From: Leptolyngbyaceae cyanobacterium
GTDB taxonomy: Bacteria > Cyanobacteriota > Cyanobacteriia > Phormidesmidales > Phormidesmidaceae
NCBI GenBank assembly: GCA_050331235.1
Contig: JBHJHA010000059.1
Coordinates: forward strand, 1 to 64,000
Direction: 5' to 3'
Length of the DNA stretch: 64,000 nucleotides
Below the pieces are notes generated by a model. That model worked only from the letters and a program-made list of their open reading frames with translations. It was not told where the DNA came from and made no database searches. Made by a program: the position numbers and the translations under genes. Of the stretch, positions 854-10,600 are shown piece after piece (the stretch's first letter is position 1; the number at the start of each line of letters is the position of its first letter).

Positions 854-1837
854 ATGAGTTTTATTTTTATCAGCTACAGTCGGCAAGACCAAGCCTACGT
901 CAGCACTTTGGTATAGGCGCTACAGTCGCACCGTCTGCCGATCTGGATTGACGATCGCATTGACTACGGAACCGATTGGCCCGATGGCATCGAAGAACAT
1001 TTAGAACAGAGTGCCGTATTTCTGCTGGTGATGTCGCCTCGCTCAAAGAGTTCACATTGGGTCAACTGTGAGCTGACACGGGCGATCGAACTTGACAAGC
1101 CGATTTTTCCGCTATTACTCGAAGGTCAGCGCTGGCTACAGGTTGCGACCAAGCAATCGGTCGATGTCATTGGCGGCAAGCTGCCAGAAGCCCGCTTTTT
1201 TGATGCCCTGCGAAAGTATTTTCCGATGCCAGTGGATACGGCAGACTCTTTGGCCGTGAAAACGGTGGTGGAAGAAAAAATCCCGCCTGTGCCCAGACCC
1301 TCAGTTGAAATGCCGACCAAACCGACTGAAATTGAGCTGAAGTCGGACAAGGGCGTTGACTATCAGGAACTGCAACGGCTGCTACAAGAAAAAAAATGGC
1401 GCAAAGCTGATATAGAGACGATTCATCGAATGGCGGAAGCCCTAGGCCTAGACCAAAACGACCCAATTCGCTCCAAAGCGTTGCAGACCTTTCCATGTGC
1501 TGACCTAAAAACGATTGACGCCTTGTGGAAGCACTACAGCTGTGGCAAATTTAGCTACAGCGTGCAGAAAAATATTTGGCAAGAGTGCGGCAGCCCGACT
1601 GATGTCGGAAAAGATTGGGATCGGTTTTGTGCTAGGATTGGTTGGAAAAATACCAACGGAAACTACTCGGGCTACAGCAAACTAACAGCAGATCCCAATT
1701 TTTCCCCGCTCGGCGAATTTCCCTATTGTGGTCGTTTTGTTGGTTGGGGTCGGCTCGGTATTTGGATTGTTAATATCCGCACGGTCTCTTCTCTCTTAGC
1801 CAGACTTGTAAACTGCGATAGCGATTTTAGAATTTAG
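854..1837 (+). pseudogene. TIR domain + GUN4 domain protein with premature in-frame TAG at 914-916
   Basis: ATG 854 gives MSFIFISYSRQD...WIDDRIDYG...SKSSHWVNCEL (TIR), in frame with ORF 1028-1837 carrying GVDYQELQRLLQEKKWRKADIET...FPCADLKTIDALW...GKFSYSVQKNIW (GUN4). Confidence 0.85.
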
Positions 1838-1933
1838 ATTTTGGATTTTCGATTGTTGGTTTGGTAGTGCAAAGTCTCGATGGATGCGACGATCATGTTT
1901 AGATTTTGGATTTTAGAGTTTGGATTTTTGATT
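1824..1933. repeat. Two short tandem heptamer arrays (ATTTTGG-like) at 1824-1854 and 1897-1933
   Basis: attttag aatttag attttgg attttcg and gtttag attttgg attttag agtttgg atttttg read directly. Confidence 0.85.
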
Positions 1934-2289
1934 GCTTTGCCTAGAGCGTAGGGTTTTGATGGACGCAACAATCATGGCGACGATTTCGTTGATTTCTGTC
2001 ATCAAACTTGCGACTTTTGCTTCAGGAATCAGGTCTGATTCAACCAGCAACTCTAGCCAGTACAGGCACTCATCGGCTTCTTCTTCAACAATGCTCAGTT
2101 TAGCAATCATGTCTGCTTTAGATTTGGCGCGGCAGGCAGCGCGATAATTTGCACCTACCGATGTTGCACATCGGATGAGTTGTCTTCCCACGATTGCCGC
2201 CGAAGGCTCTTGGGGTAATGCTTCTGCTAACCGAATCACCCTCTCAACGCTAATACCTTCGTTCTCTGCTTAAACGCCGCCTCATTCAA
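1913..2289 (-). pseudogene. Four-helix-bundle protein (23S rRNA IVP / TIGR02436-like, Avd-related fold), frameshifted
   Basis: TTG 2289 MNEAAFKQRTKVLALR, 2-nt insertion near 2242, then VIRLAEALP...QLIRCATSVGANYRAACRAKSKADMIAKLSIVEEEADECLYWLELL. Confidence 0.85.
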
Positions 2290-2367: not shown

Positions 2368-2652
2368 TCAAGATTCAGGGTCGCTATCGAGATTGTGAAC
2401 AACAAATTGATGGAGTAGGTTAGCAATCACTACCGATACAGAGGATTCTGCTTGACTTGCTAACTCTTGTAAAAACGCTAAATCTCTTGATGGAAGCTCA
2501 ACTTGAACTGCATGAAGCTCACCCAACTGAGCTTGGGCATAGCTCTGGTAACGGTTGATTTCCTGCTCTAGATTGAGGACTGAGTGCCACTCACCTTGCT
2601 CTACAGACTCCAGAATGTTTTGTTCTTCGGGAGTTAGTTGGTTATTCATCAT
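2368..2652 (-). CDS. Antitoxin (CopG/RHH-like) of BrnT-type TA pair, copy 1
   Basis: LTPEEQNILESVEQGEW N-terminus; overlaps the toxin stop; paralog of 6112-6423. Confidence 0.7.
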   Translation of the reverse strand: MMNNQLTPEEQNILESVEQGEWHSVLNLEQEINRYQSYAQAQLGELHAVQVELPSRDLAFLQELASQAESSVSVVIANLLHQFVVHNLDSDPES

Positions 2653-2926
2653 CGGCTTCTCCTAAATATTTTTTCTTCATCTTGCGACTTGGGATAATGG
2701 TTTTCAAAAAAATCGCGTGTTCGCTTTCAACAAAGGGAACAAGATAGACGTATTGGTTAATAGCTAGAACAAAAATCCGCTGTGATGGATACTTTTCCTG
2801 ATTGGGATGTTCAATAATGTCGAGAATGTTGCCCTGATTAATCGCTAATGCAACAGTGTCGAAGTCAATGCCCCTGGTCGCTTGCAGCGACTTACTCTTG
2901 TCAGGATTCCATTGCAGCCGCTTCAT
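2642..2926 (-). CDS. BrnT-family toxin, copy 1
   Basis: WNPDKSKSL..TRGIDF...HPNQEKYPSQRIFV...YVYLVPFVE....FLKTIIPSRK. Confidence 0.8.
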   Translation of the reverse strand: MKRLQWNPDKSKSLQATRGIDFDTVALAINQGNILDIIEHPNQEKYPSQRIFVLAINQYVYLVPFVESEHAIFLKTIIPSRKMKKKYLGEADDE

Positions 2927-2968
2927 GATATTTGCTTAAACTATAGCGAAAGGAGTCAGTGTCGATAA

Positions 2969-3574
2969 CTAACGAGGCATCACCTCATCTAGAATCAACG
3001 CCAGTTCAGGAAACGTCGGCGAATTGATGGCCTGACCCAGCCGAAAGGTGCTTTTCACGTAGTCCTCATCCCTAAGCTGACAGACCGTGAACGTGGGTTG
3101 CTTGGGCCGACAAATAAACGCCACACCGCCTAGTCCACGAAAATCGACAATCCAATATTCAGGAATGCCCATCAGTGCGTACTCTTCGACTTTACAGGCG
3201 TAGTCGGTTTCCCAGTTGGTGCTCACGACCTCGACTACGAGCTTGACTGAGGTGCCCTGGGTGATGACTGACTCCCGCTTCCACAACGGCTCGTCGCTCA
3301 ATGCCGACTCATCCAATACAGTGACATCAGGCCTTCTCGCAGTGGCTTGGTTGCTAAAGGGTCGCAAAATGCACGTTCGGGGAATTAACCAGGCAGTGCC
3401 CATCTGCTCAATGGCTAAATTCAGCTTACTAGCCACCTTTCCCGCAACCGCTTCGTGGGGGCCAGTCGGTTCCATCTTAATGAGTTCTCCGTCAGCCAAC
3501 TCAAAGGCGGGCTCATCGCGATATTGAGCCAAAAAGTCATCAAAGGTTAGCAGTTGCGAGGGGGCGTACGTCAT
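2969..3574 (-). CDS. Uma2 family (DUF820) PD-(D/E)xK endonuclease, copy 1
   Basis: FELADGELI.M.PTGPHE, RRPDV, LVVEVVST, EEYALMGIPEYWIVD. Confidence 0.9.
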   Translation of the reverse strand: MTYAPSQLLTFDDFLAQYRDEPAFELADGELIKMEPTGPHEAVAGKVASKLNLAIEQMGTAWLIPRTCILRPFSNQATARRPDVTVLDESALSDEPLWKRESVITQGTSVKLVVEVVSTNWETDYACKVEEYALMGIPEYWIVDFRGLGGVAFICRPKQPTFTVCQLRDEDYVKSTFRLGQAINSPTFPELALILDEVMPR

Positions 3575-5497: not shown

Positions 5498-6103
5498 TCA
5501 TCGGGGCATTACATTATCTAGCTTTAAAGCCAGCTCAGGAAATGCTGGCGAGATGATTTCCTGCCCGAGCCGAAACGTGTTTTTCGCATAGTCCTCATCC
5601 ACGAGCTGACACACTGTGAACGTGGGTTGTTTAGGCCGACCAATAAACGCCACACCGCCCAACCCGCGAAAATCCACAATCCAATATTCAGGAATGCCCA
5701 TCAGCGCGTACTCTTCGACCTTGCGGGCATAGTCGGTTTCCCAGTTCGGGCTGACGACCTCGACCACCAACTTGACTGAGGTGCCCTGAGTGATGACTGG
5801 CTCTCGCTCCCACAACGGCTCGTCGCTCAATACCAACTCATCCAACACAGTGACATCAGGCCGTCTCGCAGTGGCTTGATCGCTAAAGGGTCGCAAAATG
5901 CAGGTTCGGGGAATTAACCAAGCAATGCCCATCTGCGCAATGGCCAAATTCAGCTTGCTGGCTAACTTTCCCGCAACCGCTTCGTGTGGCCCAGTCGGTT
6001 CCATGTCGATGAGTTCTCCATCGGCCAGTTCAAAGGCTGGCTCGTCGCGATACTGAGCCAGAAACTCTTCAAAGGTCAGCAATTGAGAGGGGGCGTATGT
6101 CAT
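5498..6103 (-). CDS. Uma2 family endonuclease, copy 2
   Basis: Same length (606 nt) and near-identical protein to 2969-3574. Confidence 0.9.
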   Translation of the reverse strand: MTYAPSQLLTFEEFLAQYRDEPAFELADGELIDMEPTGPHEAVAGKLASKLNLAIAQMGIAWLIPRTCILRPFSDQATARRPDVTVLDELVLSDEPLWEREPVITQGTSVKLVVEVVSPNWETDYARKVEEYALMGIPEYWIVDFRGLGGVAFIGRPKQPTFTVCQLVDEDYAKNTFRLGQEIISPAFPELALKLDNVMPR

Positions 6104-6111
6104 GGCTGACC

Positions 6112-6423
6112 TCACATTTGAGAATTGACAGGGGCATCGTGAACATCACCCTCGGTGTCAAGGTTGCGTACAACGAACTGATGCAGCAAGTTAGTAATGA
6201 CTACGGTCAAAGAGGTTTCCGTTTCGTTAGCAAGCGCTTGTAAAAACTGAATATCTTGTGAGGGTAGCTCAATCTTAATTTCCTGAAGTTCTCCCAGTTG
6301 GGCTTGCGCATAGGATTGATAGCGTTGAATTTCTTGCTCAAGATTAGGTAGTGATCGCCATTCTCCACGCTCTTCAGAGTCTAAGATTTCTTGCTCCTCA
6401 GGCGTCAGTTGGTCATTCATCAT
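6112..6423 (-). CDS. Antitoxin of BrnT-type TA pair, copy 2
   Basis: Clear paralog of 2368-2652. Confidence 0.7.
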   Translation of the reverse strand: MMNDQLTPEEQEILDSEERGEWRSLPNLEQEIQRYQSYAQAQLGELQEIKIELPSQDIQFLQALANETETSLTVVITNLLHQFVVRNLDTEGDVHDAPVNSQM

Positions 6424-6697
6424 CTATCCCTCCCAAATACTTTTTCTTCTTCTTGCGACTGGGAATAATGGTTTTCAGAAAAACAGCCTGCTCGGATTCT
6501 ATAAAGTGAACGAGATAAACATATTGATTGATGGCAAGAACAAAAATCTGCTGCGACGGAAATTTGTACTGATTGGGATGATCGATAACGTCGAGAATTT
6601 GGCCTTGATTGATCGCCAACGTCACCATATTAAAGTCAATACCTCTGGTCGCTTTCAGCAGTCTGTTTTTGTCAGGGTTCCACAGCAGCGGCTTCAT
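6413..6697 (-). CDS. BrnT-family toxin, copy 2
   Basis: Clear paralog of 2642-2926. Confidence 0.8.
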   Translation of the reverse strand: MKPLLWNPDKNRLLKATRGIDFNMVTLAINQGQILDVIDHPNQYKFPSQQIFVLAINQYVYLVHFIESEQAVFLKTIIPSRKKKKKYLGGIDDE

Positions 6698-6905: not shown

Positions 6906-7541
6906 TCACTCAGCGTGGCTACCTGCCGCAAAGATTTGAGCAACGGTCAATTCGAAGGTCGGGAATGTGGGAGACAGAATGCGATCTTCACTACGAAACT
7001 GCTGTAGCTCGTATTCACCGTCAACTAATGTACAAACTGTTAACGTTGGCTGTTTAGGATTGCCAATATAGCGCCGTCCACCGATGCCTAGATAATCTAC
7101 AATCCAGTATTCCTGAACACCTAGAGCTTCATAATCGGCCATCTTGACCAGGTAATCGTCGCGCCAATTAGTAGAAACAACTTCTACGACAAGTTTGAGA
7201 GACCGACCATGCTCCAAAATGGATGAACCTTCCCAGCGAGTTTCTTCACTCAGTAGAGGGCGATCGATAACTGCAATATCCGGTTCGTACCCCGTATCGT
7301 CTAGCAATTTGACAATACACTCTCGCGGGATGAAGTAAGGCAATTCTTGTTGATCGATGACACCATTGAGCTTTTTGATTAAGAATCCGGCAATTTCAGA
7401 GTGTTTGCCCCGAGGTTTCGGCATCTCAATAACAACCCCACGCCTTAATTCATAGCGCTGCTCTGACGCTTCGGGATACCACTCCACAAATTCATCAAAC
7501 GATAGAAGTTGTTTGTTAGGCAGGGCAATCATGGCGGTCAA
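6906..7541 (-). CDS. Uma2 family endonuclease, divergent copy 3
   Basis: RYELRRGVVIEMPKPRGKHSEI, YEPDIAV, LVVEVVSTNWRDDY, EYWIVDY. Confidence 0.9.
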   Translation of the reverse strand: MTAMIALPNKQLLSFDEFVEWYPEASEQRYELRRGVVIEMPKPRGKHSEIAGFLIKKLNGVIDQQELPYFIPRECIVKLLDDTGYEPDIAVIDRPLLSEETRWEGSSILEHGRSLKLVVEVVSTNWRDDYLVKMADYEALGVQEYWIVDYLGIGGRRYIGNPKQPTLTVCTLVDGEYELQQFRSEDRILSPTFPTFELTVAQIFAAGSHAE

Positions 7542-7597
7542 GGCTCCCTTACGTTTTACGGTGCCCGTTCTAATAGTTTAAGAGATTCAAAAACTCT

Positions 7598-7630
7598 AAA
7601 ACCCCGGCTTCTCAGAGAAGCCGGGGTTTT
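7598..7630. terminator. 15-bp stem hairpin after chlH
   Basis: aaaaccccggcttct-cag-agaagccggggtttt, 15 nt past the chlH stop. Confidence 0.8.
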
Positions 7631-7645
7631 GAACACTTAACTAAC

Positions 7646-10600
7646 TTACTCGACGCCTTCGATGCGGTCTTCAACTTCCTGGTACAGCTCTTGCAAGCGC
7701 TCCAGGTTTTCGTCGCTGGTTTCCCAATAGCCACGCCCGTTCACTTCCAGCAGGGTTGACACCATGCGGCGGAAGGAGTTGGGGTTCAGATCCATGAGGC
7801 GCTTGCACATCTCCGGATCCTTGATGAAGGTGGTGTTGGTGTCTTCGTAGACCCAGTTATCCACCGCGTCAGCCGTGGCGGACCAGCCAATCGAGATCAC
7901 CAAGCGCTTCGAAAGTTCACGCACCCCTTCGTAGCCGTGGGACAGCATGCCCTCGTACCACTTGGGATTCAGCATTTTGGTGCGAGCATCCAGCCGAACC
8001 GTTTCCGATAGGGTGCGCACTTGAGCGTTCGCTGTCGTCGTGTCTGCTACGTAGGACGCGGGCTTGGTGCCGTCGCCCCGCAGACTGGCGACCACCTTAG
8101 TGGGGTCTGAGTCGAAGTAGTGGGAGACATCGGTCAGAGAAATCTCCGAGGAGTCCAGGTTTTGGAAGGTGACTTCCGCCTTCTTCAACGACGACTCAAA
8201 AATGCCGCGGGCCTCGTCCATAACGCCGGGGTTGTCTGAGTTGAAGGCAAAGGACTTGCGCTTCAGGTACATTTCCTGAAGCTCGCTTTCCTCTTCCCAA
8301 CTGCTGTTTTCCACCGCCAAGTTGACGTTGGAGGCGTAGGAGCCGGAGGCGTTGGAGAAGATGCGGGTAGCGGCACTGCGCACATCACAGCCCATTTCTG
8401 CCGCTTGCTCCAGGGCGTGCTTGCGGACGAAGTTCATTTCCAGGGGCTCGTCGGCTTCGGCGGCCATTTTTACGGCGCGGTCCAGTAAGGCCATCTGGTT
8501 GATGAACAGGTCACGGAAAACACCGGAGCAGTTCACCACAATGTCAACACGGGGTCGACCCAGCTCTTCCAGAGACAACAGCTCCAGCTTGTTCACTCGA
8601 CCCAACGCATCGGGCACCGGCTTGACGCCGACAAACCAGAGCATTTGCGCCAAGGATTCGCCGTAGGTCTTGATGTTGTCAGTCCCCCACAGCACGGTGG
8701 CGATGGTTTCAGGATAGCGACCGCCGTTTTCCTGCTTTTGGCGCTCCAGTAGGCGATCGACCACAATCTTGGCAGACTGCACCGCCGCTAGTGTCGGAAT
8801 CGCCTGAGGATCGAGCGCGTGGAGGTTTTTACCTGTTGGCAATACATCGGGGTTGCGGATGGGGTCACCGCCGGGACCCGGCAGCACGTATTCTCCTTCC
8901 AATCCCTTGAGCAGTGCACCTAGTTCATTGTCGGCACAAACCTGCTCCAGACAAAATTCGAGGAACTCCATCAGAGACTTGATGCTCTCGCTCTGGACAC
9001 CGGTGTAGCCTGCTTCGTGCAGGGCGGTAATCCAGGGTTCTTTGCGACCAATTTTGAGGAAGTTCAGACGCGACACCATCGAGACACGACCTTCAGCATC
9101 TACCTGCTCGTTGACCAAGGCTCCCACGGCATCGCGTACGACTTGGTTGATGTCGTATAGAAGCTGCACATCGTCGAGCACACCCCGATCGCTGTTGGCG
9201 TAGATTTCATCGATGTCGCGACCAATGCTCTCGGCAATCACCCGCTGCAGGCTCATAATGCCTTCTTCGTCGCGATCGAGCCCGGCGATGTTGACCAGGG
9301 TCGCGATCGCTTCCTCCGCGGTCGGTGGCTTACCAATGACATGCAAACCACAAGGCAGCAGCCGCGACTCGATCTCCATCAGCTTGATGTAGATTTTGCC
9401 GACCAGATTGCTGCGATCGTCTGCGGACATTTCGCTAGCGTCCACCTCGGGCAGTTCCACATCGCGATCCAGATTGCAGACCCGCGCCGTTTCGACGATC
9501 GCGTTGACAATCTGCACCGCCCGACCGCTGTCTTTTTGCGATTGATAGGAGCCGATCAGTTCGCTCAGTTCCTTCAGGCCTTTGTACAGACCCGCGTTTT
9601 CGGCAGGAGGGGTGAGATAGCTGATGGTTTCGGCATAGCACCGGCGCTTCGCGATCGTCGCCTCGGAAGGATTGTTCGCGGCGTAGTAGTAAAGGTTCGG
9701 GGTGGTACCGATGAGGCTATCGGGATAGCACATCCCCGACATGCCCATTTGCTTACCGGGCATGAACTCTAGCGAGCCGTGGGTGCCAAAGTGCAGCACC
9801 GCATCCGCCCCCCAGATTTGCTCCAAATAGGTGTAGTAAGCGGCAAACCCGTGATGTGGACTGGCTGAGCGGGAGAACAGCAACCGCATCGGGTCGCCTT
9901 CGTAGCCAAAGGTGGGCTGTACGCCGATGAAGACATTGCCAAACGCCTTGCCGTACACCAGCAGGTTTTGACCATCGGTGTTCAAGTGTCCGGGCGGCGG
10001 ACCCCAGTTCTCTTCCAAGCGAGTCGAGTAGGGCGTCAACTTTTCATACTCAGGCACCGACATGCGATAGGCCACATTCAGCTCGGGGCTGGCGTATTGG
10101 GCCTGAGCATCATGAATCACCTCTTGCATCAATGCGGCTGGTGACTCGGGCAGGTCAGGAATGTCATAGCCGTTGCCCTTCATAGCCTCTAGTACTTTGT
10201 AGATAGAGCCAAAGACATCCAAATAGGCCGCCGTGCCGACGTAGCCCTTATCCGGTGGAAAGCTAAAGACTGTGATTGCCAGCTTTTTATCAACTTTAGG
10301 CTTGCGGCGCAGATTGCCCCACTTCATGGCCCGTTGAGCAATGGAGCTGATGCGGTCCTGCTGGGAAATGGCCCGACCGGTCATGCCGTCGCGACCGGAG
10401 AGAACGATGGGCTCGATCGCTCCATCCAGTTCGGGAATCGCCATCTGTAGCGCCACCTGAATGGGGTGCAGGCCCAAGTCGCTCTCTTCCCACTCTTCTG
10501 TGGTTTGGAATACCAAGGGCAGGGCCACCATGTAGGGGCGGTTCAGCCGCTTCAAAGTCTCAATCGCCTTGGGATGGTCTTGGCGAGCGGGACCACCTAC

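Follow-up and report, generated by a model that had tools for sequence, protein, structure and literature searches.

What produced the 3' end of the GUN4 domain in the TIR_2-GUN4 fusion gene of this cyanobacterium? The gene lies in a stretch of 64,000 nucleotides (the window, parts of which are listed in Table 1), and a preliminary description had read its end as the variable region of a diversity-generating retroelement (DGR), written in trans and abutting a gene with the Avd fold. The codon pattern that suggested this is real. From 1724 to 1780, seven NNT codons run without a break (1724-1744), 16 of 19 codons have C or T in the third position and none has A, and the adenine-free run at 1726-1759 does span 34 nt. 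Taken alone, that run is weak evidence against chance: adenine-free runs of at least 34 nt occur 365 times on the two strands of the source genome, and also in 22 of 113 homologous variable stretches (hereafter tips). The third-position pyrimidine excess of the window tip is the most extreme among these 113 (binomial 7e-4 at the family rate of 0.459, about 0.08 when the 113 tips are allowed for). Richness in NNY codons is confined to the window tip, and the NNY run is an outlier of the GUN4-tip family, not its rule.

Table 1. Features of the TIR_2-GUN4 locus, in window coordinates.
Feature	Positions	Strand	Remarks
TIR_2-GUN4 fusion gene	854..1837	+	in-frame TAG at 914-916; TIR_2 E 8.7e-23, GUN4 E 2.1e-33 (stop read as X)
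TIR_2 domain, residues 4-109	863..1180	+	broken at codon 21
GUN4 core domain	1343..1822	+	Pfam match ends at 1738; modelled last helix reaches ~1822
5' anchor G-E-F-P (true GUN4: GHLP)	1712..1723	+	left border of the variable stretch, ragged; raggedness seen in the G109 paralogs
Variable stretch (tip), 61 nt, A7 C8 G21 T25	1724..1784	+	no donor in the source genome
Conserved DNA tag	1785..1815	+	differs from the 21-nt family pattern at 3 positions; encodes the bulk of the last helix
Site of missing spacer and end motif (expected at ~1898)	1816..1912	.	heptamer-like repeats instead, which also provide the stop codon
TIGR02436 four-helix-bundle gene	1913..2239	-	inverted heptamer-like arms at 1905-1937 and 2327-2359; passenger, not Avd

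The window copy is a decayed orphan with a premature stop. The in-frame TAG, overlooked in the preliminary description, falls within the TIR domain; it recurs with no differences in a contig of run X1, a possible source sample of the window genome, and relatives have C at position 914. Anchor, tip and tag are kept, the family pattern is lost after 1815, and the spacer, end motif and transposase that follow the tag in other copies are all gone. The longest match of the window tip elsewhere in the source genome is 16 nt (13-17 nt for shuffles), and genomic donors exceeding shuffles were found neither for this tip nor for that of the second copy, on contig C39. A single X1 contig bridges the window tip and shows no variation. 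Contigs examined from runs X2-X5 gave no alternative alleles of either tip; the organism makes up only small shares of runs X2-X7. The window tip is likely frozen. In a related contig from run X3, both flanks and the four-helix-bundle gene are preserved, but 387 unlike letters stand at window positions 1403-1786; the C39 paralog can be aligned with a portion of this contig, which may represent a domain swap between paralogs. Elsewhere in the window, a Uma2 nuclease and two small toxin-antitoxin-like genes form a trio that occurs twice with differing order (2368-3574 and 5498-6697), in a region that also carries DUF2283, PemK-like and another Uma2-like gene.

In 113 genes with a fused GUN4 domain, the segment behind G[EH][FL]P varies in length and shows no relationship from one gene to the next. 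It is followed by the DNA tag, the same bases of which are read in three frames, as SSLASRLVxC, LFSRI[EQ]TC or LLS[HR]xDL (frame use 49/25/39, n=113). An exact scan for the tag returned at least 121 genome stretches, the 80 titles among the matches listed being all cyanobacterial; long flanks covered 80 of the tag stretches listed. Where the flank suffices, 144 of 152 tags have GUN4 encoded upstream; for loci picked by the tag alone, the figure is 109 of 115. The tip analysis covers 113 of 157 tag sites, with 44 unparsed (altered anchor, frameshift, short flank or no GUN4), and its counts are not independent, the family genomes being related. The tag was absent from viral contigs, its long, lineage-specific pattern occurred in one stretch of the metagenome contigs, too small a yield to compare populations, and Rfam, run on 10 loci with an E limit of 1, gave no matches. 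In the source genome, a NACHT-GUN4 gene (contig C11, 116537-117016) ends in IFSRAETC, a degenerate tag frame, and has no downstream element.

The composition of the tips bears on how they arise. G makes up 0.38-0.42 and T 0.31-0.35 of the bases at every codon position (n=113), and four-fold sites have G 0.41 and T 0.35 in tips versus 0.15 and 0.25 upstream in the same genes. Since the skew extends to all codon positions and to four-fold sites, it reflects the way in which this DNA is made. By contrast with the 59.7 +/- 4.5 expected from shuffles, stop codons occur in only seven of the 113 tips, a depletion which indicates that selection keeps the frame open. Copies of the upstream anchor of at least 8 nt are present in 12 of 113 tips (1.7% in shuffles), and some tips carry several in succession. 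The border on the tag side is sharp, with conservation beginning at a single base.

Close pairs of genes serve here as natural experiments. The complete genome G109 has six tagged paralogs that are 79-98% identical over the 330 nt upstream, and four of the six are 99-100% identical over the 115 nt downstream, whereas their tips, of 14-85 nt, are unrelated. Two of them constitute a tandem 1.35-kb duplication, with four mismatches in 902 nt downstream and with different N-termini; the duplicated unit of ~1.35 kb runs from the GUN4 domain to the transposase start. For the one G109 tip that was searched, a donor was absent from that genome. Upstream identity reaches at least 82% in 56 pairs of the family, and in 55 of these the tips are no more alike than those of random pairs. 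The sole conserved tip (95%) belongs to a pair without the end motif, and in five other pairs in which neither member has the motif the tips are still unrelated. Homologs of the same architecture in sister species have unrelated tips as well, and none of the close homologs in the family showed an empty site.

The end motif is found 113 or 114 nt from the tag start in 92 of the 96 loci that have it, and a convergent Y1_Tnp gene, facing the GUN4 gene, ends at this motif. Behind the 110 tags with enough flank, the transposase is near-full in 30 cases, partial in 22 and absent within 1.5 kb in 58. Its nearest kin are REP-associated tyrosine transposases, with NF047646 scores of 67.7 and 70.6 that fall below the cut-off of 80. 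NHVH is present in 44 of 62 proteins and YIHxNP in 61 of 62, followed by a long C-terminal tail, and by motif comparison the enzyme appears to resemble RAYT subclass 2.1. According to the part of PMC6006769 available to us, the two have in common NHVH, YIHxNP, the long C-terminal tail, low copy number and the absence of REP hairpins; unlike that subclass, the GUN4-cassette transposase has no terminal inverted repeats or conserved left end, and is linked to variable gene ends, flanking them on a single side. A PGQ motif in 51 of 62 transposases looks like the clamp-binding consensus quoted in the same source. The median dN/dS of 0.09 over 70 pairs points to purifying selection on the transposase. 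An IS200/IS605 insertion sequence was considered and rejected, given that two conserved ends with subterminal hairpins are missing and the NF033573 score is far below cut-off. Upstream of the transposase start codon no conservation is visible in 58 loci, and an inverted copy of the end motif was not found there as a rule; four loci, examined on both strands, have no notable spacer hairpin (z -1.8 to +1.0). At two loci (L026 and L147) the end motif of ~13 nt is inverted in place, about 112 nt behind the tag, and L026 retains a near-full transposase despite this.

The transposase is not restricted to GUN4. At E 1e-60 its clade was detected in 25 of 301 genomes of the phylum. The loci, 30 of 45 matches, face GUN4 in 20 cases and other genes with variable ends in seven, with three uninformative; the search started from a transposase that faces GUN4, and the count is biased towards GUN4 neighbours accordingly. 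The seven other cargos are four cyanobactin-like precursors, one prochlorosin-like precursor, names that we presume from peptide motifs, and, in two cases, a long gene with a variable tail; their G/T shift is only mild. In an unrooted tree that includes near-copies, enzymes of the picocyanobacterial type and those that face peptide genes come out as supported groups. Loci L190, L191, L192 and L196 have the same transposase clade facing cyanobactin-like precursor genes, so named from their leader and follower motifs, two precursors with differing cores being present at both L190 and L192. Loci L200, L201 and L215-L218 come from genomes (G320, G025 and G228) with up to eight divergent transposase copies each, and their cargo is a long gene family in which a conserved RDVRVHD motif precedes a variable, often Cys-containing tail. 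Pfam recognized no family in the picocyanobacterial-type cargo of L200.

We consider it reasonably probable that the tip is a rewritten GUN4 end in a two-gene cassette, that it likely arose through a nick made by the facing Y1-HUH transposase in single-stranded DNA next to the tag, after which a host polymerase likely closed the gap with G/T-rich, poorly templated DNA, and that the window copy is an orphan of such a cassette. The transposase would bind the end motif and nick single-stranded DNA at the tag edge, both this site and the strand being presumed, and it may reach the replication fork through its clamp-binding-like motif. The host polymerase would then fill toward the anchor by poorly templated synthesis and slip-copying. 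The new bases may come from untemplated synthesis together with slip-copying of the anchor, or from deamination of the exposed strand, which would give the same G/T skew. Frameshifts would survive via the three-frame tail, stop codons would be purged by selection, and loss of the transposase would freeze the tip. The product would act as a variable sensor of ligands, coupled to modules of the TIR, kinase or NACHT type. A bolder version, which we hold only tentatively and would not bet on at present, is a diversity generator free of reverse transcriptase (RT) and template, in which a domesticated HUH transposase repeatedly cuts the fixed tag and random DNA enters one binding-pocket loop, the three-frame tail absorbs the frameshifts, and the same enzyme clade writes cyanobactin and prochlorosin cores.

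Several observations count against the transposase-driven rewriting of the tip. No rewriting event was caught, the material examined being contigs only. The 58 of 110 tags without a transposase within 1.5 kb and the five motif-less pairs with unrelated tips do not sit easily with it. The G/T content of tips is not significantly higher beside an intact transposase (median 0.82 versus 0.71, n=24 versus 21, p 0.07), and we do not count it as support. The unremarkable spacer, the NF047646 score and the mild shift in the other cargos weigh in the same direction.

The transposase could instead be a hitchhiker, with tips swapped between strains by homologous recombination or DNA uptake, and with host repair and selection for a Gly/Trp/Val-rich loop shaping the result. 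More than half of the tags do lack a transposase, the stretch replaced in the X3 contig is what a swap would leave, and a chi-site recombination model exists for prochlorosins. Nevertheless, protein selection leaves the skew at four-fold sites unexplained, swapping creates no new sequence, and the fixed spacing, the end motif common to three kinds of cargo and the purifying selection on the transposase argue for a function; we find this account rather unlikely. Another account, which we also think unlikely, is that the tip is rewritten a single time, when the cassette is copied or grafted to a new N-terminal domain, and represents junction DNA of a one-ended mobile unit. The G109 duplication, with its unit running from the GUN4 domain to the transposase start and its different N-termini, is what one would expect here, as are the lack of conservation upstream of the transposase start and the failure of the contigs and the metagenome stretch to reveal population-level variation. 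However, the tip lies inside the duplicated unit and not at its ends, no empty site was seen in close homologs, sister-species homologs of the same architecture also have unrelated tips, and several successive anchor copies occur in some tips.

The DGR origin put forward in the preliminary description fared worse. The source genome (4.8 Mb, 95.5% complete, 118 contigs) has no PF00078 (RVT_1) matches, hence no DGR reverse transcriptase, and no NF033474 matches for Avd. A short-word BLAST of this genome for a template copy returned only GUN4 paralogs and chance matches, and in an ungapped scan for a template differing at adenines only, the best non-self hit had 29 non-adenine mismatches in 107 nt (28-29 in shuffles). 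As in DGR targets, the variable region does lie 3'-terminally in a binding domain, whose fold is GUN4 and not CLec. When the 3' ends of the GUN4 genes of relatives were tabulated, length and frame proved to change, and the tips were G/T-rich at all codon positions with no codon periodicity; substitutions that keep length, frame and third positions, as a DGR makes, were not found in the GUN4 family. Adenine substitution of a fixed template cannot give such changes in length and frame or G/T at all positions, and a DGR is therefore not supported. One may still imagine a DGR elsewhere, unassembled or ancestral, that diversified the window tip in trans from an AAY-rich template. The NNY bias of this tip is the strongest of 113, the assembly is incomplete and fragmented as given above, many relatives carry unclassified RTs of DGR-like size, and the source genome has three FGE-sulfatase genes. 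Yet one tagged genome (G001) has no RVT_1 matches, tag searches of the complete genomes G016 and G109 gave no template-like copy, and the source genome lacks all three components; together with the contradiction in mechanism this largely refutes the idea, which we regard as highly improbable. Diversification of the window copy in trans is in any case unlikely because the downstream signal is missing.

As for the abutting gene, a four-helix-bundle neighbour (PF05635) is present as described, and it is not Avd: it matches TIGR02436 with 85 bits against a cut-off of 24. It is convergent to the GUN4 gene, its stop lying about 75 nt beyond the GUN4 stop. Four-helix-bundle genes follow only seven of 157 tags, in both orientations, and the gene is therefore best seen as a passenger. 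Heptamer-like repeats at window positions 1823-1934 and 2327-2359 flank it in inverted orientation, and at another locus (L024) a 72% identical four-helix-bundle gene with similar repeats stands directly behind the end motif, which suggests that gene and repeats may form a small mobile unit. Finally, a neutrally drifting low-complexity loop, to which the common adenine-free runs and the broken window gene might point, is contradicted by the unrelated tips between 97-100% identical flanks in the G109 paralogs, by the stop depletion and by the single-base border, and scarcely merits credence.

What the tip might do follows from its place in the fold. A structural model of the window GUN4 domain (pLDDT 88.5) resembles cyanobacterial GUN4 structures with Foldseek TM scores of 0.69-0.77; a low-confidence loop at residues 134-140 is predicted within the tip, and the last predicted helix is coded largely by the tag. 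When the domain is aligned with Synechocystis GUN4, the anchor pairs with GHLP, and the match extends to Leu209. In the available part of PMC1084334, porphyrin is placed over Leu210 and between Arg214 and Arg217, with Arg214 essential. Compared with that porphyrin-binding protein (PDB 1Y6I, 4XKB), the window domain has the same fold and an anchor matching GHLP, but the Leu210/Arg214/Arg217 segment, mapped by position beyond residue 209, is replaced by the variable stretch, and the conserved loop with Arg214 and Arg217 is missing. The tip thus likely replaces the ligand-contact loop, judging from the alignment, and retention of porphyrin binding by window-type GUN4 would consequently be unlikely. 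The proposal that GUN4 is a hypervariable ligand-binding module of a TIR protein holds for the hypervariable segment at the ligand pocket, though not for its DGR source. The true GUN4 of the source genome is a separate, untagged gene on contig C43. Fused GUN4 has been proposed as a tetrapyrrole sensor (PMC7159879, seen in excerpt), and GUN4 is among the effector domains listed in the accessible portion of PMC8195603.

An intact module exists in the same genome. Contig C39 (~6930-8770; L002) encodes a second TIR_2-GUN4 protein with a 49-nt tip made partly of tandem anchor copies, followed by the exact tag, the end motif and a full Y1 transposase. This transposase is intact, faces the TIR-GUN4 gene and is the sole one of its kind in the source genome. 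X1 contigs end at both borders of this tip, and none of those listed bridges it; as a sign of variation this is a weak hint only, because paralogs and other organisms share the tag.

The closest precedent comes from marine picocyanobacteria, where TnpA_REP faces prochlorosin (procA) genes and diversifying recombination has been proposed (bioRxiv 10.1101/2020.03.09.984088). The authors reported that strong evidence on causality was lacking in either direction, called the TnpA_REP association unique to marine picocyanobacteria, and stated the origin of the indel-rich diversity of prochlorosin cores as unresolved, the link to the transposase resting on co-location; GUN4 is absent from their main text. 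Both systems have a Y1-HUH enzyme with subclass 2.1-type motifs facing the gene 3' end, conserved distance and intergenic DNA, an indel-rich variable 3' region and many truncated transposase remnants, and the end motif of the GUN4 cassette also occurs in picocyanobacterial-type loci (L198, L200, L201). A facing Y1-HUH transposase whose HUH and Tyr motifs are intact occurs in the family and at the C39 paralog, whereas the window copy has none. The family is further characterized by indel-rich variability confined to the gene end and by a conserved distance and conserved intergenic DNA, of which the window copy keeps the tag only. Unlike TnpA_REP-procA, the GUN4 cassette carries a folded signalling domain where the other has a peptide core, its variable part is internal and precedes a coding tag used in three frames, the G/T skew is strong and an intergenic hairpin is lacking. 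Cyanobacterial DGRs, as far as the available part of PMC7517822 describes them, likewise place a variable 3' ligand-binding module on kinase, TIR and other signalling domains, have dispersed paralogs and have often lost their machinery. The GUN4 cassette differs from them in having no RT, template, Avd or CLec fold, in its changes of length and frame and in the absence of an adenine or codon-position pattern; in that part of the source, GUN4-like domains appear among the N-terminal partners of CLec targets, not as the variable domain. The portions of PMC10783134 and PMC13500794 at hand add nothing further on mechanism. A literature search for a cassette of GUN4 and TnpA in cyanobacteria found none, with thin coverage of subscription papers.

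Our best reading is that the GUN4 module is the GUN4 version of a proposed, as yet unproven, transposase-linked diversifier with the same layout as that of the prochlorosins. For a test it offers a border defined to the base, a base-composition signature, an end motif whose distance is fixed, six paralogs of recent origin that differ wholly in their tips, and a unit of only two genes, and the C39 copy is a better experimental target than the decayed window copy. If the template-free generator were true, bacteria would have their own analogue of junctional N-region diversity. If the transposase is causal, the module would represent a new bacterial means of targeted protein diversification, and fused GUN4 domains would be variable sensors, not tetrapyrrole gauges.
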